DNA from: Betaproteobacteria bacterium
GTDB lineage: Bacteria > Pseudomonadota > Gammaproteobacteria > Burkholderiales > Rhodocyclaceae
Assembly (NCBI GenBank): GCA_009781085.1
Contig: WQYV01000001.1
Span: 5,438-69,437 of the forward strand
Direction: 5' to 3'
DNA length: 64,000 nucleotides
This document shows, piece by piece, positions 8,647-46,791 of this stretch. A program made the position numbers and the translations under genes. The notes under the pieces are model-generated. The model saw only the letters and a list, made by a program, of their open reading frames with translations. It was not told where the DNA came from and made no database searches. Position 1 is the first letter of the stretch. Each line of letters opens with the position of its first letter.

Positions 8647-9309
8647 GGGCAAAGGCGCAGTTCGATTGTCAAGTGAACATTTCTTTGTGCAGCATGAGCC
8701 GTGCCCGGATAGCGGCAGGCATGACCACCGCGTCATGGGTGATTGCGCAGGAGTAGAACGCGAACCGCGAGTCTCCCGTATAACGTTTTGCTGCAACGTA
8801 GGCCACGGCGGAGAGGCCGATTGCCAAGGTGTGCGGACTCATGTGCCAGCCACCTGCCAAAGACAGTGCAACCCTGTTCATTATCGATAGATACAACTAT
8901 GCGAAATAAGGTAGGGTTTTCGCATGATAGGTACGCCCATTCGTGGAGCTTACTACATTGTACTTGATTTTATTTGAGATAATAACAAAAAAATAAAAAT
9001 ACAAAGCTTTATTCTTATTTGAAGAAATGCAAAGTTATAGATTGTATATGAATGTTTATGATAACAACATTTTTGTTGTTAGTAGTTTCTACAATTGACG
9101 AGAATGGGTGGTTAATAATAATTTCAATCTATGTCGAACGGAATCCTTAGTCTTCAGGACAAAGTGCTTTAGAGGCGGTCATGTTTGCTTTTTGTATAAA
9201 GGATGCTTGATGCCAGTATATTTTGATCGATTTTTTCTTGAGCATTTACCGGTGATATACCGAGGGTATGGAACTGGAATAAACGGTGTTGTCTGTAAGA
9301 ACAGTGTTG

Positions 9310-10062
9310 ATGAACATGCGTATTAGCAATAAAAAGTATTTATATATTGCTGCTTCTCTGATCGGTATTGTTATTGTATTAGTTGCGCGCATAGGGTTAT
9401 TTTGCCTGTCTACCAACATACTGATGCAGGTAAACGAAAATAACGACAATATCTTTTTTAATGTAGTGGTATTTTCCATCACTGTACTTTTATTGGTAGC
9501 ATTGGGACTGATTGGTCTAACGATCAAGGCAGTATCCAGAGAACCGATTGAAGAACTTTACGTCCTGCTGAAACGATTCAAGGACAGAGGCGGTTTTACT
9601 GGTCATTCCAGTAGTGAAGTTGATGAGATTACGGTGGCTCTTGAAGAAACGATGAACGATCTACATGGGTTGCTTCAATCCATCTTGATCAAAGCGCAGA
9701 CCATTGACGGCAGAGTAGAAATACTGGCTAATGGGATACAGCAAGTGGTTGCAGATCAGACCAATCTATTTTCCCTTAACGCCGCAATCGAGTCAGCACG
9801 TTCGCGACAGGACGGTTTTTCCGTCGTTTCCGGTGAAGTATTGTCGCTTGTTGAGCGTACTGGGCGTCTGACGGGCGATGTTCGTGATATGGCCGACCAA
9901 CTTCGGATGGGGGTCAATGAAATTGTCGTTGAATTGGACCATGTACTCAAGCGAGTCGACCCCAATCGGATCAGTGCGCCAATAGATACAGATGCGTGTG
10001 CAAGCTCCATTCAAGGGGAAGAGGCGATTACTGCGCTAAATGAAGCAGATGGTTCCAAGTGA
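9310..10062 (+). CDS. Short methyl-accepting chemotaxis-like membrane protein (2 TM, HAMP-like region, degenerate signalling tip)
   Basis: Two hydrophobic helices, then ADQTNLFSLNAAIESAR...GFSVV.GEV..LVERT, matching the MCP hairpin-tip consensus. It is far shorter than typical MCPs. Confidence 0.75.
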   Translation: MNMRISNKKYLYIAASLIGIVIVLVARIGLFCLSTNILMQVNENNDNIFFNVVVFSITVLLLVALGLIGLTIKAVSREPIEELYVLLKRFKDRGGFTGHSSSEVDEITVALEETMNDLHGLLQSILIKAQTIDGRVEILANGIQQVVADQTNLFSLNAAIESARSRQDGFSVVSGEVLSLVERTGRLTGDVRDMADQLRMGVNEIVVELDHVLKRVDPNRISAPIDTDACASSIQGEEAITALNEADGSK

Positions 10063-14112: not shown

Positions 14113-15138
14113 TCAGAAAATAAGCTCAAGCTGCTCAAGCGCCTTTTCGTCCTGTTGGTTCAGAAAAGCCCCAAGCAATTGAAGCGATTTTTTTGCGTTC
14201 TCATTGCCTTGTTCCACCGCTTTTCTCAGCCATTTTTGGGCTTCGGTGAGGTTTTGTGCAACCCCTTGGCCTTTTGCGTGTATTACCCCAATGTTGTGTT
14301 GGGCGGAGGTATCGCCAAGTTCTGCAATTTTGAGATACCACTTCAGGGCTTCTGCGTAATGAGGAGGTTCAATGAGCCTGTCACAACCGGCGTATGTTTT
14401 TGCAAGGAAAGTTTGAGCCAATAAATGCCCCTGCTCAGCCGCTCTCGTATACCACTTCAAGGCTTCTATAATGTCCTGGTCCGCAACACACCAGCCCGTG
14501 GAGTACATGTATCCAAGCTCATGCTGGGCATCCACGAGTCCCTGTTCTGCCGCTTTTTGAAACCATTGCAAACCTTTTTCTTCATTTTCCCTGCCACCCA
14601 TGAACCAACAATAAATTCCACCGAGTTCAAATTGAGCTTTCATGTCTCCCTGTTCTGCTGCTTGGCGAAATACTTCCGTCGCCATTTGAAACCATTTTGC
14701 GGATTCCTCTTCATACCATTTGGTGTCCTTTTCGCCACAAACAAGGGCTACTGCGGCGGAGACCGTTTTGATCCTCTTATTCTGGCTCTCGCTCTTAACC
14801 ATGTCATATATTTCTCCCAAACGGCATTGTGCTTCCGCATCGCCATTTTCAGCCGCCAAGTGAAACCCTTCCATCGCCAGCTGAATCCATTTGATGGCTT
14901 CTTCTTCATTTTTTTTATTGGGCGGGAGCCTGGAGTACATCAACCCAAGATCGTATTGAGCTTTTGCGTGTCCCCGTTCCGCAGCCTTGAGGTAGCACTG
15001 CATGGCTTTTGCTGAATCCTGCTTGACTCCCCGGCCTTCTTCGTACATGCACCCAAGGTCATATTGAGCCTGTGTATCTCCTTGGTTTGCCGCGAATTTT
15101 ATTTCTTCAGAACGTTTCATCAGTTCAAATAGAGCCAT
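14113..15138 (-). CDS. Sel1-like repeat (SLR) protein
   Basis: About seven repeats of the type AAEQGD.EAQ..LG..Y...A..W...AA. Confidence 0.92.
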   Translation of the reverse strand: MALFELMKRSEEIKFAANQGDTQAQYDLGCMYEEGRGVKQDSAKAMQCYLKAAERGHAKAQYDLGLMYSRLPPNKKNEEEAIKWIQLAMEGFHLAAENGDAEAQCRLGEIYDMVKSESQNKRIKTVSAAVALVCGEKDTKWYEEESAKWFQMATEVFRQAAEQGDMKAQFELGGIYCWFMGGRENEEKGLQWFQKAAEQGLVDAQHELGYMYSTGWCVADQDIIEALKWYTRAAEQGHLLAQTFLAKTYAGCDRLIEPPHYAEALKWYLKIAELGDTSAQHNIGVIHAKGQGVAQNLTEAQKWLRKAVEQGNENAKKSLQLLGAFLNQQDEKALEQLELIF

Positions 15139-34339: not shown

Positions 34340-35347
34340 CTACGCGGCAGTAGCCTGTACGCACTCGCGGACGAGGCACGGGCCACGAAAAACGAGGCCA
34401 CTCATCAACTGCACCAATGCTGCCCCGGCATCGAGTTTTGCTCGGGCGTCTGTGCCATTGAGTACGCCCCCCACCGCAATGATCGGCACTTCACCCGCTA
34501 GTTCCTGCGCGAGTTGGCGTATTAAGGTGGTTGAAGCTTCCAGCAATGGCGCACCCGACAGCCCGCCTTCCTGATCGGCGTGATGCAACCCCCCCACCTT
34601 GTCGCGCGCAAGCGTGGTATTGGTGGCAATCACGGCATCGATGCTGTGACGGCGCAAGGCATCGGCAATAGATGAAATGGCAATCGTGTCAAGGTCTGGT
34701 GCAATTTTCAGCGCTAGCGGTACGTAGCGGCCATGATGCCCGGCCAAGTGATGTTGGGTCTCCTTGAGGCGGGCAAGGAACTGGTCGAGTTCGGAAGTGC
34801 TTTGCAACTGGCGTAGGTTCTTTGTATTGGGCGACGAAATATTGACTGCCACGTAGCTTGCCACCTCGTACACTTTGGCGAAAGCCACAAGGTAGTCATC
34901 GACGGCGCGTTCCATCGGAGTGCCGACATTTTTACCGATATTGATGCCGAGAATGCCTTTGTATTTGGATGCACGCACATTGGCGACAAGCGCATCGACC
35001 CCGTGGTTGTTGAAACCCATACGATTGATGATGGCGTGTGCTTCCGGCAGCCGGAAAAGGCGCGGACGCGGGTTCCCCGGCTGTGCACGTGGCGTGGTCG
35101 TACCAATTTCAAGGAAACCGAAACCCATCAATGCCAACCCGTCGATGGCCTCGCCGTTTTTGTCGAGTCCTGCGGCAAGCCCAATGCGGTTTGGAAACTT
35201 GAGCCCCATGACCTCTACCGGGATAGAGAGGTGTGGACGTCCAACGGGCAGCAGGCTGCCAGCGACGTGCAAGGTGGCTATGGCGGTTTCGTGCGCGGTT
35301 TCAGGATCAAACGAAAAGAGGAGGGGGCGAACTAGATCATAAAGCAT
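34340..35347 (-). CDS. pyrD: Quinone-dependent dihydroorotate dehydrogenase
   Basis: [34 protein letters not shown] and GGLSG. Confidence 0.97.
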
Positions 35348-35987
35348 GGGGGCGATTGTAGCGGCTTGTACCCGACAGCGCGACATGAAAAACGAAACCG
35401 TTCCAGTACAAGACCAAACCGAGCGGCAGGGAGGATCGCATGATGGGTGCAATCTCCGCGATTCATGGAGAACTGAGGCGAGACAAATATTTATGAAACC
35501 AAAGAATACCCACTTAATTTTCTTGGAAAACCTCCAAACAGAGGGCAGGGGATTCAAAGCGGGGTTAGAATTTCATAAATTATTGCCAGTGTTCCAGAAT
35601 GTAAAAATTATTAATGTGATGAGATGTTATTTTGAATGATATTTTAGCTAACTGTGTAACTCTTATGTGGACACGTCTTATATGTACCTAATGGTGTACA
35701 ATTTAAATTGTCGGTGTAATATATTATTTCTACGCACATACATTCTATGTGATTTCGATGTGTATCATTTCATAGATATCGATATAGTAACTTCCATGAG
35801 GTTCGGTTTATATTGTCACACCGATGCGTTATTTTTGTAAGAAAGCTTGCATTGAATTTTATGTAAATGCGTTTATTTAGATAACGAAACGTGATCGAAG
35901 GAATGGAGTTTCATTAAAAATCAATGAGTTGTATCTGTATTTGATGCGTATTTAGCTGCTTGGTTAATAAGTGCGAAGGAACATAAA

Positions 35988-37100
35988 ATGAGCAGTATCC
36001 GCAAGTTGATCATGCTGGTGGATGATAGCCTTACCAACCTGATGGTTGGTAAGGAGGTTTTATCTGACATATACAGTGTGATAACTATTCCATCAGCAAT
36101 AAAAATGTTTGAATTGCTGATGCGCTATACACCAGAGCTGATTTTGTTGGATGTCGACATGCCTGAAATGAATGGATATGAGGCAATTGAAATTCTTAAA
36201 AATAACCCAAAAATGAAAAATATTCCAGTAATTTTCCTCACAGGTATGGGTGATTCTGTCAGCGAACTTCGCGGGTTAGAATTAGGCGCTGTTGATTATA
36301 TAACTAAGCCATTTTCACCGGCACTTCTGAAAAAGCGGGTCGAACTGCATACTTTGATAGAAGCACAGAAAAAAGCACTACAAGATTATAACGAAAATTT
36401 ACAACAAATAGTGCTTAATAAAGCGCAAACTATACTTAAATTACAGAATAAAGTTTTGCAAGCAATGGCAGAATTAGTGGAAGGGCGGGATAATTTTACA
36501 GGGAATCATGTTGAACGAACGCAAATCTGCCTTGAGGTATTATTGTCTGCTATGAATGAAACCGGTATATACCGAGAACAAACAATCGGGTGGGATATTA
36601 ATTTATTGCTTCAATCTTCACAATTGCATGATGTTGGGAAAATTGCTATTCACGATAATATTCTTAAAAAACCTGGAAAATTAACAGAAGAAGAATTCGA
36701 AGAAATGAAAAAACATGTCGCATATGGTGTCAACTTTATAGAAAAACTTGAAGAGAGTGAGGAGGATAGTATTTTTTTGAAATACGCCAAAATATTCATT
36801 AATTATCATCACGAAAGATGGGATGGTTTCGGTTATCCAAACAATCTCGAAGGAACAAATATTCCGCTACTGGGGCGTCTGATGACTATTGTCGATGTTT
36901 ACGAAGCCTTAGTTTCTGAACGGTGTTACAAACAAGCGATCGATCATCAAGCAGCAGTGAATATTATTCTACAAGGCAGGGAAACTATTTTTGATCCAAT
37001 TTTGACTGATTTGTTTGAACAATGTTCAGAACAATTGTTTTTATCAATGTCGTTAAATGCAAAAAATGAACAAAATCAATATTTGAGCATAAGAAAATGA
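35988..37100 (+). CDS. Response regulator with HD-GYP c-di-GMP phosphodiesterase domain
   Basis: REC motifs VDD, LLDVDMP, FLTG and KPF. HD-GYP motifs LHDVGK, HHERWDGFGYP and VDVYEAL are intact. Confidence 0.93.
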   Translation: MSSIRKLIMLVDDSLTNLMVGKEVLSDIYSVITIPSAIKMFELLMRYTPELILLDVDMPEMNGYEAIEILKNNPKMKNIPVIFLTGMGDSVSELRGLELGAVDYITKPFSPALLKKRVELHTLIEAQKKALQDYNENLQQIVLNKAQTILKLQNKVLQAMAELVEGRDNFTGNHVERTQICLEVLLSAMNETGIYREQTIGWDINLLLQSSQLHDVGKIAIHDNILKKPGKLTEEEFEEMKKHVAYGVNFIEKLEESEEDSIFLKYAKIFINYHHERWDGFGYPNNLEGTNIPLLGRLMTIVDVYEALVSERCYKQAIDHQAAVNIILQGRETIFDPILTDLFEQCSEQLFLSMSLNAKNEQNQYLSIRK

Positions 37101-38158
37101 ATGGAAGAACTGTGATACCAGATATTAGTACGTCAACAAGATACTTTTTTGTTGTAAATCCGATATGTTTTGATAACCATCAGAAAATGGAGTCGATGAT
37201 TGCAGGAGTGCACAGATTTTTCAATGAGTTAAGCAAATCAACGATAAAAGTACCCCCAGATTATGCTGTTCATGTTTCGCGCTTTCCGCGCGATGCCATC
37301 GGTGCAATACGACGATTTGCCGCTGCTGTTCCATCTGCTGTTCCACTCAGAGTATATGCTGTCGGGGGTGACGGTATATTGTTCGATTGCTTGAATGGTA
37401 TCGTAGGGTTGAATAATGTGGAATTAGGTATTATGCCCTACGGTGCAGAAAACAAATTTTGTACATTTTTTGGAATAAAAAATCAGAACATCCTTAATTC
37501 TTTGGAAATACAAACCCGCTCATCTTCTATACCGGTAGATGCAATGTATTGCAACGGTAATTATGCTTTGAGTCATTGCATGATTGGTTTGGAGTCGCTG
37601 ATAAATGGTAATATTAAAAAAATTCGAAAACATATATTTTTGAAGCGATTTATGCCATCAGTTTTTTATTTTTTTTTCGTAAATTACATGTATTTTATAG
37701 ATGCTTTGAATTTTAAAACAGTCGATCATAACTACAGTTTATGGGTAGACGGTGAAGATATGAGTGGAGTACATTTCGCAATTAATATCATCAACACTTC
37801 GTGGCATTCTGGTGAAGGATTTAATCCAAAAATTGACCCGTGTGATGGTTGGTTGAATGTGCTGGTGGGTGGTGATATGAGTGTACTGAAAATATTTAAA
37901 ACAATTAATGGTTGGTCGAATACATTGAATAAATTAAAAATAGCCGAAATGTATGGAAGTGATGGTGATCAAGAAAAATATCGAAACTTATCTCGAAAAT
38001 TTTATACATTTAGGTATGCAAAAAAAATTTTTATAACTTCCGAAAACTCATTGATACTTAATTTGGATGATGAAATTTTTTATGACAAAAATATTACAAT
38101 TGAAATAAAACCTGCGGCAATACGCATCATCGTTCCGAATTCTGTAGCTGGAGTGTAG
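37097..38158 (+). CDS. Diacylglycerol/lipid kinase (DAGK_cat/YegS-like) family protein, divergent
   Basis: FVVNP, VGGDG, IMPYG, DG(W)LNV and LDDE correspond to the NPxSG, GGDG, PxGTxN, DGxLD and DGE family motifs. Its ATG overlaps the upstream TGA. Confidence 0.8.
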   Translation: MNGRTVIPDISTSTRYFFVVNPICFDNHQKMESMIAGVHRFFNELSKSTIKVPPDYAVHVSRFPRDAIGAIRRFAAAVPSAVPLRVYAVGGDGILFDCLNGIVGLNNVELGIMPYGAENKFCTFFGIKNQNILNSLEIQTRSSSIPVDAMYCNGNYALSHCMIGLESLINGNIKKIRKHIFLKRFMPSVFYFFFVNYMYFIDALNFKTVDHNYSLWVDGEDMSGVHFAINIINTSWHSGEGFNPKIDPCDGWLNVLVGGDMSVLKIFKTINGWSNTLNKLKIAEMYGSDGDQEKYRNLSRKFYTFRYAKKIFITSENSLILNLDDEIFYDKNITIEIKPAAIRIIVPNSVAGV

Positions 38159-38160
38159 CC

Positions 38161-41100
38161 ATGACACTTAAAGCGGATCCAGGAAATAATTATTTTTACT
38201 TGGCACTTGTCATGGCGGCGATTGGTGCGATCATCATTATATTGCTACATATGGGATGGGTAGTTCACGCGCATCATTATTCTGTCCTGTTAGTGCCTAT
38301 TTGCGTTTCCCTCGTCATGTTGTTAGTTATAATTCCTACGATAAAATGTATACAACGAGTTTTAGGTAGTCAGGACGAAGGGGGATATTACCGGGCAGCC
38401 AGTTTTTTCGCTTTTTTTGGTGTTATTGGATTTCTCAATATTCGATTACCGCATTATCTCTGGACAGAGCAGCTAGACAAAGCGCTTCTTCTGATCATTA
38501 TATGTTTTCTACTTGTTGTTATGATGGCACTCTTGATGATTTCTATAAGAAACCTTGCAGCTATGTCCTACACGGTTCCATTACTTATCTTTTTAGTTTT
38601 CATTTTTAATAGTCTATATTTAAACGATCATGAATATTATTTAAACGTCAGCGTGTGTATATGTGGTATCGGTGCAATTTACTGTCGATACAAATCGCTT
38701 TTCTATCTTATTATTACAGTTAATGTAATTCTTTATATATTGGTTTTAAATCATATTCCTCTTTTCGGGTTAACTGTGTCATACGACGTTGGGTCTATCA
38801 AGTGGGGAATTGCTATTTACGCTATGTTTGTGCTTCTGATGCTGACGCGTTTTGCTTCAGACAGAAATTTACGATCTACGCAAGCGGAAGAGGCTTTTGC
38901 TACACTGATGGCAAGCACCCCCAACATTATCGCCCTAGTGGACGAAAGAAACTGTGTCACCTATATCAGCGAGCCGATGGCAAAATTGGCCAATATCGAA
39001 AACACAAAAATGGTTGTTGGGCGCCCATTGATTGATCTTTTTCATCAAATGAGTATGAAATTGATGATTAGTGATATTTTTGAGCAAGATGATTTTTATG
39101 ATGAAACAAAAGAAATAATAGAAAATGATAAATCATTTTATTTCAGAATTATATCCAGTTTATTTGTGGGCACTAGGTATGCTAATAAATGTGAAAAACG
39201 TGGTAGATTTATTGACATCAGTGATGTAACCCCCCTGGTTGAAGCCAGATTGGAAGCGGAACGAGCCAATCGATCTAAGAGTATGTTTTTGGCTAAAACA
39301 TCTCATGAAATTCGTACTCCAATGAATGCAATTATTGGTATGAGTGAGTTGATTTTACGTCAAAAAGATATATCTAATAATGTTCGCTATTATGCGGAAA
39401 ATATGAAACAAGCAGGAACAAATTTATTGGTAATTATCAATGATATTCTTGATTTTTCCAAAATGGAATTCAATAAATTAGAACTTGTCCCAGCAGAATA
39501 TGAGTTTGATTCCTTATTGAGCGATGTGTGTATAATTACCAAGATGCGTTTAGCGGGAAAACCAATTCGATTCTATGTTTATGTTGACTGCCATCTACCG
39601 AGCAAAATGGTTGGTGATGAAGCACGTATTCGTCAAATATTGTTGAATTTATTATCTAATGCTGTGAAGTATACAAAAAAAGGATATATTTCACTTCATG
39701 TAGATGCTAAAGAAGTGCAAGCAAATGAATATGAGGTTCGATGCAGAGTACAAGATACTGGTATTGGTATTAAAGAAAGTGATATAAAACGCCTGTTCAA
39801 TGAGTTTGTGCAAATCAATGGTTTCAATAAAAATCAAATAGAAAGTACGGGATTAGGGCTCGTTATTTCAAATAACCTCAGCCGCAAAATGGGTGGAAAA
39901 ATTATGGTTGAAAGTGAGTATGGTAAAGGATCAGTTTTTACTGTTACGTTTTTACAAAAAATTCTTATATATCATTGCTTTGCAGAAGTTTTTGAACCAG
40001 ATAAAAAAAGTGTTTTATTTTATGAACCTCGTCGTCAATTTGTAGAAAATGTTTCTATGACTGTCAAAAATTTAGGTGTATTTTGCAAACGTGTTGAATC
40101 TCATGAAGATCTTGTTGATGAATTATTGAGGCGCGTATACGGTTTTGTTTTCGTACCTCACTATTTGTTGACGGAAACCGTTACCGAACTGAAGCGGCTT
40201 GATTCTAATGCTGTGCCGGTGATTGTCGACGCGAATACTGAAGATCATATGTCTATACCCCATATCCGTACACTAACCATGCCGACCTATGCGCTTAATG
40301 TTGCCAACATCCTGAATGGTTTGCCTGATGTGAAGCATTATGCTCAGGTTGCCGAGAGCGAGGTTCGCTTTATTTTCCCGGATGCAAGAGTTTTGATCGT
40401 GGACGATCTTGCGATCAATCTGCGTGTGGCGCAAGGAATCATGGCTATTTACGAGATGCAAATCGATTGTGTCGAAAGTGGGTTTGAAGCCATCGAAAAG
40501 GTAACACAACAGCACTATGACATTATTTTCATGGATCACATGATGCCGGGTATGGATGGTATGGAGGCGACAGCCGCTATTCGCGCATTAGAAGATGAAT
40601 ATTTTAAAAAAATACCTATCGTTGCATTGACTGCTAATAGTGTTTCTGGGATGCGTGAAATGTTTCTTGAAAATGGCTTTGATGATTTTCTTTCTAAACC
40701 AATTGAAATTGCTAAGTTAGATGGAATTCTAGAAAAATGGATTTCTAAAGAAAAACGCCGAACCGTATTGTTACCAGTAGAAAATATAAAGGATACTGAT
40801 CAAAACGTTGTTGCGAGTTTCCTGAATATCGAAGGCGTGAATGTTTCTACTGGTATACAGCATGCTGCTGATTCCGAAGAACGCTACTGGAGTTTCCTTG
40901 AGGTTTTTCTATGTGATGCAAAACAGCGTTTTGCGTCGTTGGAAATGCCAACGCCCGATAACATGAATACATTTGTCTCGCATGTTCATGCCTTGAAAAG
41001 CGCCTTAGCCAATATTGGTGCATTGACATTATCGGAATCGTCAGGTTTGTTGGAAGCTGCCGGTCGTCGAGAGGATATATTGTTCATTCGTGAACATCTG

Positions 41101-41403
41101 GATAATTTCCGTTCTAGGTTGATTTCGCTGTGCACACAAATAGATAAAATAATTACGAAAAGTCGCTCTCATAAAACAATGTGGAAAGACGAGGAAGAAA
41201 CAGACGATTCGCGTTGGAATCAGGAAATTACACGATTGCAGGTAGCCTTGAAAGCAGAGGACATCGATGGTATGGATAAATGCCTAAAGATTTTGCAATC
41301 CTTATTGGTATCACCGGATCAGCAAGCCTTGATTTCGAAAGTAACCGAATTGATATTGGTTTCGGAATTCGAACTAGCCTTACACATGATTGAAGCGATG
41401 TGA
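38161..41403 (+). CDS. Unorthodox hybrid histidine kinase (about 7 TM, PAS-like, HisKA, HATPase, pseudo-REC, REC, Hpt)
   Basis: SHEIRTPMN, LLNLLSNAVKYT, DTGIG, TGLGL, VDD...FMDHMMP...LTAN...KP, and Hpt motif VHALKS. Confidence 0.93.
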   Translation: MTLKADPGNNYFYLALVMAAIGAIIIILLHMGWVVHAHHYSVLLVPICVSLVMLLVIIPTIKCIQRVLGSQDEGGYYRAASFFAFFGVIGFLNIRLPHYLWTEQLDKALLLIIICFLLVVMMALLMISIRNLAAMSYTVPLLIFLVFIFNSLYLNDHEYYLNVSVCICGIGAIYCRYKSLFYLIITVNVILYILVLNHIPLFGLTVSYDVGSIKWGIAIYAMFVLLMLTRFASDRNLRSTQAEEAFATLMASTPNIIALVDERNCVTYISEPMAKLANIENTKMVVGRPLIDLFHQMSMKLMISDIFEQDDFYDETKEIIENDKSFYFRIISSLFVGTRYANKCEKRGRFIDISDVTPLVEARLEAERANRSKSMFLAKTSHEIRTPMNAIIGMSELILRQKDISNNVRYYAENMKQAGTNLLVIINDILDFSKMEFNKLELVPAEYEFDSLLSDVCIITKMRLAGKPIRFYVYVDCHLPSKMVGDEARIRQILLNLLSNAVKYTKKGYISLHVDAKEVQANEYEVRCRVQDTGIGIKESDIKRLFNEFVQINGFNKNQIESTGLGLVISNNLSRKMGGKIMVESEYGKGSVFTVTFLQKILIYHCFAEVFEPDKKSVLFYEPRRQFVENVSMTVKNLGVFCKRVESHEDLVDELLRRVYGFVFVPHYLLTETVTELKRLDSNAVPVIVDANTEDHMSIPHIRTLTMPTYALNVANILNGLPDVKHYAQVAESEVRFIFPDARVLIVDDLAINLRVAQGIMAIYEMQIDCVESGFEAIEKVTQQHYDIIFMDHMMPGMDGMEATAAIRALEDEYFKKIPIVALTANSVSGMREMFLENGFDDFLSKPIEIAKLDGILEKWISKEKRRTVLLPVENIKDTDQNVVASFLNIEGVNVSTGIQHAADSEERYWSFLEVFLCDAKQRFASLEMPTPDNMNTFVSHVHALKSALANIGALTLSESSGLLEAAGRREDILFIREHLDNFRSRLISLCTQIDKIITKSRSHKTMWKDEEETDDSRWNQEITRLQVALKAEDIDGMDKCLKILQSLLVSPDQQALISKVTELILVSEFELALHMIEAM

Positions 41404-41413
41404 AAGAGAGCAA

Positions 41414-42700
41414 TCAAGCTTTGCGATTGATTGCTCGGTAGCCGATGTCTCGGCGGTATTGCATGCCGGTGAAGGAAATCGTTTCGATAAGTTCATAGAC
41501 CCGTTTTTGTGCGGCGCGGACATTTACACCCAACGCAGTGACGCAAAGTACGCGCCCTCCCGAAGTGACGATCTTTTCGGTTTTGTTGAATGCAGTGCCG
41601 GCGTGGAAAACATGAGCATCCTCGCCGAAAGAGTTGTCGGGAGGCAACCCCTTGATGATGTTGCCCGTGCGCGGGGTTCCCGGATATTTGGCACTTGCCA
41701 GCACGACACCAAGGGCGACCTTCAAATCCCATTCTGCTTCGATCTTGTCAAGTTTGCCATCGATTGCGTGTTCCAAGAGTTTTAGGAAGTCGCTTTTCAG
41801 GCGCATCAGAATCGGTTGTGCTTCGGGGTCACCCATGCGGCAGTTGAATTCCAGTACCTTGATACTGCCATCTTTGAGAATCATCAGGCCGGCGTAAAGA
41901 AAACCAGTATAAGGCATACCTTCTTGCGCCATACCCTTAATGACCGGGTTGATGACTTCCCGCATAATCTTGGCGTGAATGCTTGGCGTGACAGCCGGGG
42001 CAGGGGAGTACGCACCCATGCCACCGGTGTTTGGCCCGATATCACCGTCGCCAATGCGCTTGTGGTCTTGGCTGGAGGCAAGCGGTAACACGTTTTTGCC
42101 GTCGGCCATGACGATGAAACTCACTTCTTCGCCATTGAGAAATTCTTCGATCACGATCCGCGCACCGGCTTCACCGAGTTTGTTGCTGGCGAGCATGTCG
42201 TCAATGGTTATGTGCGCTTCTTTCAGCGTTTCAGCAACGACGACGCCCTTGCCAGCCGCAAGGCCATCGGCCTTGATAACGATGGGTGCACCTTGTTTTT
42301 CCACGTAGGCGTGCGCACTTTCGGCATTCGTGAAAGTTTCGAACGTGGCAGTCGGGATTCGATGTCGCACCATGAAACGCTTGGCGAAGTCTTTGGAAGA
42401 TTCGAGTTGGGCAGCGGCTTTGGTGGGGCCGAATATCCTCAATCCCCGTGCGCGGAAAATATCAACGATACCATCAGCTAGTGGAGCTTCGGGGCCGACG
42501 ATGGTCAGGAAAACCTTGTTGTCGGTAGCAAATTTCGCGAGTTCCTGTGGGTCGCTGATCGACAGGTTTTCCAGCTCGCGTTCAGCGGCAGTACCGGCGT
42601 TGCCAGGGGCGACATAGATTTTCTGCAAACCGCGCGTCCGCGCTAGACACCAGGCAATGGCGTGCTCGCGTCCGCCGGAACCAATGACGAGGAGTTTCAT
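41414..42700 (-). CDS. purD: Phosphoribosylamine--glycine ligase
   Basis: IGSGGREHA, APGNAG, VGPEAPL, KADGLAAGKGV, PNTGGMGAY and EFNCRMGDPE. Confidence 0.97.
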   Translation of the reverse strand: MKLLVIGSGGREHAIAWCLARTRGLQKIYVAPGNAGTAAERELENLSISDPQELAKFATDNKVFLTIVGPEAPLADGIVDIFRARGLRIFGPTKAAAQLESSKDFAKRFMVRHRIPTATFETFTNAESAHAYVEKQGAPIVIKADGLAAGKGVVVAETLKEAHITIDDMLASNKLGEAGARIVIEEFLNGEEVSFIVMADGKNVLPLASSQDHKRIGDGDIGPNTGGMGAYSPAPAVTPSIHAKIMREVINPVIKGMAQEGMPYTGFLYAGLMILKDGSIKVLEFNCRMGDPEAQPILMRLKSDFLKLLEHAIDGKLDKIEAEWDLKVALGVVLASAKYPGTPRTGNIIKGLPPDNSFGEDAHVFHAGTAFNKTEKIVTSGGRVLCVTALGVNVRAAQKRVYELIETISFTGMQYRRDIGYRAINRKA

Positions 42701-42774
42701 GATTTCTTTTCCGTGATGTGATGCGGACGGCCTTGCCGGACTCCGCATCGTCGATGTCGAGTGTGTTGTGAGAG

Positions 42775-45854: not shown

Positions 45855-46733
45855 TCAGTTGCGGTTGCTCCGACGGCGAACGATGACACCAACCATACTC
45901 AGGCCTGCCAGCAGCATCGCGTAGGTCTCGGGCTCAGGGATCGGCGAAGTTGCGATCGAGAAGCTAAGTTGAGGAATGCTTTGGCTATGCTCTGGTGTCG
46001 TAAAACCCCAGCAGGCACCCGTCAATGCCCCATTGCTTACGCTAGAGCATGTTGCCGCGTCGATCAATTGGAGGCCGTTTACGGTGTAATCAAAGCTGTA
46101 CCACCCCCCGTCGTATTGGAATAAGACGGAGCCCTCAGCCTTGGCAAACAGAAGGATATCGTCGACAGGGCCGGGCTCATTCGGCGTTTCATAGAAATAT
46201 ATGTCGAACTTTATGTCTGGAACGGAAACCGGATCATAAACACTACCATTCCAAGCTCCCAAATCGATCGTCATGGTCAGCTGGGCGTACGTGAGGTCAG
46301 CAGTCCTTGCGTCGATTGTGTTATTGATGTGCCGGAACATATTGATGGCCGTCTGCCCGCCGTGGATGCCGTTGGGGCCATAGTACCCGTTCCAACCATT
46401 TCTAAAACCTGCGCTTCCGTCAATATACAGGCTGCTGCGAACCTCCCCCCCACCGGTGTATGGTGAGAGGAAGTTATCCACGCCACCCTTGTCGCCCCAA
46501 CTGATTGTGTCAGGTTTATTTGGATTTATACCATTAGCGTATGCAGCGCCCCTGGAGTCATGGCCACTGTCGTATGATTTCGTGAAGCCGCTTTCAGCGG
46601 GGCTGAAAGCGGCGGCAGTCCATTGCATGTCGATCGAGTAATTCCACCACTCGACGGCTGCCGCTTGCGAGGCCGAAGCTATGCACGCCAAGGCGCTGGT
46701 GGCGAGCAACTTGCAGATTGTTCCTTTTTTCAT
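45855..46733 (-). CDS. PEP-CTERM sorting-domain exoprotein (THxN-like family)
   Basis: Signal peptide ending ASQA-A, FRHINNTI motif, and C-terminal IPEPETYAMLLAGL-TM-RRR. Confidence 0.92.
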   Translation of the reverse strand: MKKGTICKLLATSALACIASASQAAAVEWWNYSIDMQWTAAAFSPAESGFTKSYDSGHDSRGAAYANGINPNKPDTISWGDKGGVDNFLSPYTGGGEVRSSLYIDGSAGFRNGWNGYYGPNGIHGGQTAINMFRHINNTIDARTADLTYAQLTMTIDLGAWNGSVYDPVSVPDIKFDIYFYETPNEPGPVDDILLFAKAEGSVLFQYDGGWYSFDYTVNGLQLIDAATCSSVSNGALTGACWGFTTPEHSQSIPQLSFSIATSPIPEPETYAMLLAGLSMVGVIVRRRSNRN

Positions 46734-46791
46734 GATGAAACCTTCCTTTGAGTACCACAGACAAAAACGCAACAGGTGTTTTCGCGTAATA

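Follow-up and report, generated by a model that had tools for sequence, protein, structure and literature searches.

The window analysed here comprises 64,000 nucleotides (64 kb) of contig WQYV01000001.1, from a bacterium of the Rhodocyclaceae, and its sequence derives from a termite-gut metagenome. Between pyrD and purD it carries three open reading frames (ORFs) on the + strand, spanning 35988–41403, which encode a response regulator (RR) with receiver (REC) and HD-GYP domains, a diacylglycerol kinase-like (DAGK-like) protein and a hybrid histidine kinase (HK) with a membrane-embedded sensor region (Table 1). These assignments come from the ORF list and Pfam, which matches the domain sets that an initial annotation had claimed for all three proteins. 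Other members of the genus are labelled 'Azoarcus sp.' or Betaproteobacteria metagenome-assembled genomes (MAGs) in public records. Its kinase pairing recurs in termite-gut bacteria of seven phyla and was met in no paper, so that the cassette appears to represent a kind of signalling module not yet studied.

The guanine-plus-cytosine (GC) content of 35988–41403 is 0.367, against 0.559 in the rest of the window. A sliding-window plot falls from ∼0.56 to 0.33–0.42 across 35500–41400; five consecutive 1-kb bins lie at 0.33–0.40, with nearly all other bins at 0.50–0.63, and GC at third codon positions (GC3) is 0.29–0.34 in the three cassette genes compared with 0.60 in purD and pyrD. The low-GC three-gene block that had been claimed is thus real, but its backbone, put at ∼60% GC, measures ∼56%. 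The gene junctions also read in the sequence as annotated: an ATGA overlap at 37097–37100 joins the regulator and DAGK-like genes, a TAG-CC-ATG junction (TAG at 38156–38158, ATG at 38161–38163) joins the DAGK-like and kinase genes, and the kinase stop codon (41401–41403) lies 10 nt from that of purD (41414–41416).

Table 1. Features of the cassette and its flanks, in window coordinates.
Feature	Position	Strand	Basis
pyrD, dihydroorotate dehydrogenase; left flank, normal GC	34340–35347	-	Pfam DHO_dh, 255 bits; start by congener alignment
Left end of the inserted block; non-coding, AT-rich from ∼35480	35372–35987		Empty-site comparison, L108 and L110
RpfG-family response regulator, REC and HD-GYP, 370 aa (P0001)	35988–37100	+	Pfam, motifs
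DgkB/YegS/BmrU-fold DAGK-like protein, 353 aa (P0002)	37097–38158	+	Pfam, AlphaFold2 (AF2), Foldseek
Hybrid sensor histidine kinase, 1080 aa (P0003)	38161–41403	+	Pfam, AF2 model of residues 1–365
purD, glycinamide ribonucleotide (GAR) synthetase; right flank, normal GC, convergent with the kinase gene	41414–42748	-	Pfam GARS_N/A/C

The DAGK-like protein P0002 has the two-domain fold of DgkB, YegS and BmrU, a DAGK_cat domain followed by a β-sandwich. Pfam gives DAGK_cat 43.7 bits (cut-off 23.6) together with a weak YegS_C match, and the NCBIfam model TIGR00147 scores 72 bits against a cut-off of 118.65. The top Foldseek matches of the AF2 model (mean predicted local distance difference test score, pLDDT, 80) are DgkB (2qv7), BmrU (3t5p) and YegS (2p1r), at E 1e-20; the wider matches, which include YegS (2bon) and the sphingosine kinase SphK1, have E values of 1e-17 to 1e-20, and the Foldseek TM-scores on the target are 0.6–0.79. 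A profile search of PDB sequences agrees (E 1.5e-20). The protein has no signal peptide, contains a strongly hydrophobic helix at residues 187–204, and is the product of the sole good DAGK_cat gene in the genome.

The roles of the GGDG, ND and DGE-type residues are known from DgkB and SphK. P0002 retains GGDG (as GGDGI), Asp97, Asp148, Asp218, Asp250, Asp324 and Glu326. Its N-D-F motif has become N-K-F (in PYGAENKF), Arg123 is replaced by Thr and DGE by DDE, and the complete set of GGDG[T], PxGTxND and DGE is not present. Outside the genus GGDG, N-D-F, Asp148, Asp218, Asp250 and Asp324/Glu326 are kept at 88–100%, which fits active kinases there. Three cysteines, Cys98, Cys152 and Cys161 of P0002, are invariant across the aligned family (in LFDCLNG, in D...CG and as the Cys of C.IG.E) and do not occur in canonical DgkB, YegS and BmrU; a metal or redox role for them is possible.

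In the kinase, P0003, Pfam finds PAS, HisKA, HATPase_c, REC and Hpt domains behind a hydrophobic N-terminus. The AF2 model of residues 1–365, built with 25 homologues (pLDDT 84), shows eight transmembrane (TM) helices (residues ∼7–251) joined by short loops and followed by a PAS fold (252–356). Its signalling motifs are all intact (H-box SHEIRTP, receiver FMDHMMPGMDG, Hpt HALKS), and the combination of a TM sensor with HisKA, HATPase, REC and Hpt is that of the RpfC-type hybrid kinases. A Foldseek search with the model of residues 1–365 returned PDB matches for the PAS part only, the complex of DhaR(N) with DhaK among them, and none for the 8TM bundle. The match to the NCBIfam model MASE3_PAS_HK reaches 137 bits where 560 are required, and none of the three cassette proteins reaches the cut-off of any curated NCBIfam family.

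The regulator, P0001, is a predicted cyclic di-GMP (c-di-GMP) phosphodiesterase. Pfam detects Response_reg at residues 8–118 (78 bits), HD_5 (91 bits) and HD. The acceptor Asp of its receiver lies in LILLDVDMP, as expected of the RpfG family, and its HD-GYP domain carries HDVGK, HHERWDGFGYP and DVYEAL..R.YK (in DVYEALVSERCYK), so that all family motifs readable from the sequence are present, judged by a motif list drawn from a survey of the family (10.1101/2021.11.05.467447) and from general knowledge. It is 65–76% identical to the copies in congeners; its best NCBIfam match, to the NosR family, falls below the cut-off. The same genome holds 12 GGDEF and four HD-GYP genes, so that a c-di-GMP context exists for it.

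Relatives of the DAGK-like protein occur far from this genus. A scan for the subfamily motif over one genome per species (185,579 species) found 89 relatives, the best 80 of which belong to Pseudomonadota (this genus only), Spirochaetota, Bacillota, Myxococcota (labelled 'Deltaproteobacteria'), Synergistota, Fibrobacterota and Actinomycetota; an exhaustive profile search yielded 519 clusters (50% identity) with E ≤ 1e-30. Wherever the source of a carrier could be checked, it was termite or invertebrate gut. The MAG names of fourteen relatives place them in the higher-termite collection published by Hervé et al. (PMC7024585), two are isolates (Treponema primitia ZAS-10 and Lachnospiraceae ZAX-1), and one further relative was traced to an 'invertebrate gut metagenome'. 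The rest of the relatives, MAGs with 'k119_' names, presumably come from another collection of termite-gut genomes; several of them are congeners of a genome whose reads are termite-gut metagenomic. In some genomes there are two or three DAGK-like paralogues, in tandem or close to one another (L084:941–4615, L104:7656–10376, L085:5992–9008).

ORFs were called in 81 loci across these seven phyla and typed with pieces of the window proteins. A homologous TM-PAS kinase lies directly downstream of the DAGK-like gene in 61 of the 81, with a commonest gap of −4 and most junctions overlapping by 4–8 nt. Two further loci run off the contig edge after the DAGK-like gene, and in about eight the hybrid kinase is directly upstream instead. 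The downstream partners always have the homologous PAS domain, and nearly always six to eight TM helices before it; the partner in T. primitia ZAS-10 has the PAS domain without a TM region. The TM and PAS regions of the partner kinases are homologous across phyla, and the TM-PAS module is retained in a Treponema subgroup with a different kinase core. The partner in that subgroup is a 772-aa TM-PAS protein with HATPase_c, no HisKA and a weak Hpt-like match, with a single-domain REC gene upstream (for example L078:8964–11282 and L078:7094–7498; likewise L074, L080, L082, L089, L091 and L093).

The output side is more varied. A REC-HD-GYP gene is present in 26 of the 81 loci, the other outputs being REC-GGDEF or single REC proteins, and public gene calls give DAGK-HK-RR-RR in Treponema, RR-x-DAGK-HK in Lachnospiraceae ZAX-1 and DAGK-HK-HK-HK in T. 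primitia ZAS-10. The initial annotation had made its proposal depend on linkage of the DAGK-like gene to kinase or HD-GYP genes elsewhere, and in distant taxa that linkage is found. Of the three-gene module it proposed, the DAGK-like/kinase pair proves to be conserved, with REC-HD-GYP as one of several outputs. Pairwise distances between DAGK-like proteins correlate with those between the partner PAS domains and between the TM regions (Spearman 0.44 each, with none of 300 permutations as high), and show no correlation with those between the kinase cores (Spearman 0.11). From the linkage, the TM-PAS region shared across kinase cores and outputs, and this distance correlation, we conclude that the conserved unit pairs the DAGK-like protein with the TM-PAS input module, not with the transmitter, and that the output varies.

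The association extends to single polypeptides. In about 10 of the 150 best representatives the DAGK-like domain is the C-terminal part of a longer protein, with Pfam architectures REC-GGDEF-DAGK, HisKA-HATPase-REC-DAGK, 7TMR-DISM-HK-REC-DAGK, dCache-DAGK and HisKA-DAGK. Two of these types each occur in two independent assemblies, with a PAS hybrid kinase next at a 4-nt overlap, so that those two fusions are not assembly errors. The fused domain sits after the receiver and ahead of the TM-PAS kinase, and the fusion proteins retain the family motifs. Examples behind REC-GGDEF, HK-REC and 7TMR-DISM-HK-REC are found at L115:1506–3428, L117:6001–9321 and L102:3779–7396, the PAS hybrid kinase again following with a 4-nt overlap. 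Fusions of this kind are strong comparative evidence that the DAGK-like domain operates inside two-component circuits, and as gene architecture they show what appears to be its direct functional coupling with signalling modules.

Within the order, 15 of 21 congeners carry the DAGK-like gene, and no representative of 19 other genera does. All 15 carriers keep the RR-DAGK-HK order, and in many of them the cassette adjoins purD and/or pyrD. The DAGK-like copies of the genus form one clade (support 100) with a long stem, inside a mixed Spirochaetota/Myxococcota/Bacillota group, which suggests that the genus acquired the gene once. Two close congeners, G012 and G019, have empty purD–pyrD sites (L108:3075–3120 and L110:12768–12785), in which the purD stop and pyrD start are 11–41 bp apart. 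Homology with these sites stops ∼25 bp upstream of the pyrD start, and from this comparison the insertion in the window spans ∼35372–41410. Cassettes of low GC group together in one subclade (support 97), made up of the species with the cassette between purD and pyrD; the two congeners with empty sites also belong to it.

The deviant composition, patchy distribution and empty site are those of a genomic island, but mobility genes, a tRNA target and direct repeats are not seen: Pfam reveals no integrase or transposase among the window ORFs, and no flanking repeat or target-site duplication at the insertion ends is significant. A recent transfer into this strain is ruled out by the monophyly of the cassette in the genus and its occupation of the same site in several species. 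The horizontal acquisition proposed in the initial annotation therefore stands as regards the foreignness of the module to this lineage, and falls as regards its age, the cassette being an old resident of the genus. Cassette GC equals host GC in the other phyla and lies below that of the flanks, by 0.02–0.20, in this genus only. Among the cassettes of the genus GC3 ranges from ∼0.3, in the window, to 0.84 (L019:4741–10041), and in the flanking purD from 0.60 to 0.86.

The cassette has diverged quickly. At ∼90% identity in purD the regulators are 76%, the DAGK-like proteins 50–53% and the kinases 59% identical, and in the closest species pair the synonymous divergence (dS) of the cassette is 2.5–4 times that of the flanks. 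Identity within the genus is lowest in the TM sensor (41%) and the DAGK-like C-terminal domain (54%), and highest in the dimerisation and histidine phosphotransfer (DHp) domain (83%) and in the REC domain and regulator (75%). The catalytic motifs of the DAGK-like protein are affected: the GGDG Asp is replaced in four of the 15 genus members, among them near relatives of the window (GGSG), and the N-D-F Asp in 13 of the 15. Of 65 columns conserved in the family, P0002 itself departs from the consensus at 13, the median outside the genus being 2.5. Even so, the ratio of non-synonymous to synonymous divergence (dN/dS) of the DAGK-like gene is 0.07–0.37 in the genus and 0.12–0.28 on the window lineage, and all cassette ORFs are intact despite the AT-rich DNA. 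By these measures the cassette is fast-evolving under purifying selection and is losing catalytic residues in this genus. The motif erosion, the purifying dN/dS and the intact ORFs together make a selected, non-catalytic role the simplest reading of the DAGK-like protein here.

The cassette is flanked by rnfB, rnfA and pyrD on one side and by purD and purH on the other (Pfam). Congener alignments place the pyrD start at the ATG complementary to 35345–35347, relative to which the mechanically called pyrD ORF (34340–35557, TTG start, 405 aa) is over-extended. This start leaves a non-coding leader of ∼640 bp ahead of the operon, which is expected to contain the promoter of pyrD (−) and, in the opposite direction, that of the operon (+). 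Pfam matches no ORF within the leader (35372–35987), and scanning both leader and operon against Rfam at E ≤ 1 gave no match, which argues that neither contains a c-di-GMP riboswitch. Promoter and terminator scans gave matches no commoner than in shuffled sequence. Sampled words of one related locus, L048, were absent from the metatranscriptomes of the study behind it, and a search of RNA runs found none containing the cassette of the window. Elsewhere in the window, patches of lowered GC (0.41–0.50) at 9286–10062, 14113–15138 and 45855–46772 hold accessory-type genes, namely a short ORF with a methyl-accepting chemotaxis protein (MCP) signal domain, a Sel1-repeat protein and a PEP-CTERM protein.

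We suggest, tentatively and with limited confidence, that the DAGK-like protein serves the kinase as a co-sensor reporting on lipids, and that the kinase in turn controls c-di-GMP hydrolysis. This proposal builds on what the sequences show, namely the anatomy of the cassette, the fold of the middle protein, its conserved linkage and its fusions, one foreign origin and eroded motifs; beyond these we infer a lipid ligand, a contact between the two proteins, a direction of control and a c-di-GMP output. The three genes would form one operon encoding a multistep phosphorelay and an accessory input protein. Phosphorelay from a hybrid kinase to an RpfG-type regulator is textbook biochemistry. On that established knowledge of hybrid kinases and RpfG-family regulators, and on the domain sets found here, the kinase would autophosphorylate, relay the phosphate internally from His to Asp to His and pass it to the receiver of the REC-HD-GYP protein, whose phosphorylation would set the rate of c-di-GMP hydrolysis. 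The DAGK-like protein would be a dedicated partner of the 8TM-PAS module, binding a diacylglycerol-like lipid at the cytoplasmic face of the membrane and, in most carriers, probably phosphorylating it as well. The kinase would read the state of its partner, most likely through direct contact with the PAS or TM region, and the operon would thereby link the state of membrane lipids to c-di-GMP. The DAGK-like protein of this genus probably acts by binding, as a pseudo-enzyme co-sensor, and not by catalysis.

Several observations weigh against the co-sensor proposal. A DAGK-like domain fused behind REC occupies the position of an output domain, not of an input. No kinase lies directly downstream in 14 of the 81 loci, some of which have an upstream one and some of which are short contigs. 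The co-variation signal is modest, given that fast change is usual in the TM regions of sensor kinases. Finally, the full catalytic motifs outside the genus fit a mechanism based on a product better than pure binding.

In the foremost alternative, the DAGK-like protein would be a lipid kinase, catalytically active and under regulation, whose product, phosphatidic acid or another phospholipid, is sensed by the 8TM bundle, so that catalysis and not protein contact carries the signal. The 88–100% conservation of the motifs outside the genus and their retention in the fusion proteins are as this would require; the place of the domain behind REC, REC-GGDEF or HK-REC resembles that of a regulated output, with the TM-PAS kinase always next, and a sensor of six to eight TM helices with short loops would suit a membrane-borne ligand. 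We nevertheless regard it as rather unlikely, since the clade of the window is losing the catalytic Asp under selection, the window copy has N-K-F and DDE, and the partner in T. primitia ZAS-10 has no TM region. The initial annotation had likewise linked a membrane lipid or lipid-kinase signal to c-di-GMP turnover; the linkage of the DAGK-like gene to kinase and HD-GYP genes keeps that idea alive, whereas a catalytic signal is doubtful in a genus with eroding motifs.

A more general form of this alternative would give the DAGK-like domain a signalling function of its own: as a lipid kinase under regulation, either by itself or attached after REC, GGDEF, HK or dCache modules, it would place a lipid mark in the inner membrane, and a dedicated 8TM-PAS kinase encoded directly after it would read the mark. 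We consider that unlikely. Were it true, it would amount to a bacterial lipid second-messenger relay tying two-component systems to c-di-GMP, transferred through at least seven phyla and seen only in termite and invertebrate gut communities.

The direction of control could also be reversed, the kinase anchoring or regulating a soluble lipid-recycling kinase, with the DAGK-like protein as output and not input. In Staphylococcus aureus the 5TMR_Lyt-GGDEF protein GdpS binds DgkB through its GGDEF domain, brings this soluble enzyme to the membrane and supports essential diacylglycerol recycling (PMC11962490). Translational coupling of the genes, and the status of P0002 as the genome's only good DAGK_cat product, would suit such an arrangement. 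Housekeeping recycling, however, sits badly with absence from six of 21 congeners and from all sister genera, with clean empty sites, with the eroded catalytic residues and with restriction to one habitat; and a protein with its own hydrophobic helix at 187–204 may need no recruiter. We therefore think this arrangement improbable. GdpS also counts in favour of the co-sensor reading, as a known case of a soluble DgkB bound by a polytopic protein of signalling domains.

Equally improbable, in our estimate, is that the cassette is a decaying passenger, weakly expressed or silenced, in which the DAGK-like gene is becoming a pseudogene with no functional tie to its neighbours here. The extreme AT drift (GC3 ∼0.3), the rate of evolution of P0002 (the fastest copy of the genus, with a terminal branch of 0.6), its many departures from family-conserved columns and the loss of the cassette from close congeners all have the look of decay. 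Yet none of the three ORFs is broken in 5.4 kb of DNA at 37% GC, a composition that readily yields stop codons, the dN/dS on the window lineage is that of a constrained gene, the signalling motifs of regulator and kinase are all intact, and 15 congeners share the order of the genes and their coupling.

Least probable of all is a cell–cell signalling pair of the RpfF/RpfC, CqsA/CqsS or LuxM/LuxN type, in which the DAGK-like enzyme would make a diffusible lipid and the kinase would be the receptor of a termite-gut community signal: an enzyme gene does lie beside a multi-TM hybrid kinase with Hpt and a REC-HD-GYP gene as in Rpf, the module has spread over phyla within one habitat, the enzyme C-terminal domain and TM sensor are variable and the transmitter and regulator conserved as in pherotype loci, and cassette dS is raised relative to the flanks, but a kinase adds phosphate and phospholipids do not diffuse between cells, the catalytic erosion in the genus speaks against a synthase, the operon has no export gene, and variable TM regions are common in sensor kinases.

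Accessory proteins that feed histidine kinases are few and mostly chance finds; here the order of the genes, their translational coupling and the domain fusions tie a whole subfamily of lipid-kinase fold to one type of polytopic PAS kinase. The apparently new element is the DAGK-like partner, and its domain may possibly define a new lipid-based signalling node. The system offers a testable entry to the coupling of membrane lipids with c-di-GMP, to the function of orphan YegS/BmrU-like 'lipid kinases' and to the spread of modules in a gut ecosystem. The genus is also a natural experiment in which the motifs decay and the partnership persists, and one that can separate catalytic from scaffolding roles.

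Full-text searches of the accessible literature turned up no publication that connects a DAGK-family gene with sensor kinases or with HD-GYP proteins, the only related precedent being GdpS and DgkB. The cassette resembles that pair in combining a soluble DgkB-family protein with a polytopic membrane protein of signalling domains. It differs in that the partner is an 8TM-PAS hybrid kinase (P0003 has no Pfam match to GGDEF or 5TMR_LYT), its genes show translational coupling, it is an accessory module and its catalytic residues are eroding; the genes for GdpS and DgkB are not described as an operon (PMC11962490).

With DgkB, YegS and BmrU themselves the family shares the two-domain fold and the GGDG and D..E motifs, and it is set apart from them by NPxSF, GGDGILFDCLNG, PYGxxNDFxRxFG, the three invariant cysteines and the linkage to sensor kinases. 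The DhaK/DhaL–DhaR system of Escherichia coli is an analogy only: there too a kinase-fold protein reports the state of a ligand to a PAS/GAF-type domain, but fold, ligand and class of regulator all differ.

The closest parallels in circuit design are systems that end in c-di-GMP turnover. Like RpfC/RpfG of Xanthomonas, with RpfF, the cassette has a multi-TM HisKA-HATPase-REC-Hpt kinase with a REC-HD-GYP protein as its predicted target, an enzyme gene beside the kinase and a predicted c-di-GMP output. Unlike Rpf, its enzyme has the DgkB/YegS fold and not that of a crotonase-family diffusible signal factor (DSF) synthase; the DAGK_cat gene is the sole third gene, no other ORF lies between pyrD and purD, and no crotonase-family RpfF is encoded there. 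The sensor, of eight TM helices and a PAS domain, has no Pfam model for its membrane part. In the circuits formed by H-NOX or NosP with HnoK or NahK and a REC-HD-GYP or EAL protein, as is proposed here, a stand-alone sensor protein is found beside a hybrid kinase whose relay ends in a c-di-GMP phosphodiesterase; in the present cassette, however, the accessory protein has a lipid-kinase fold in place of a haem-protein fold, and the kinase carries a large membrane sensor of its own.

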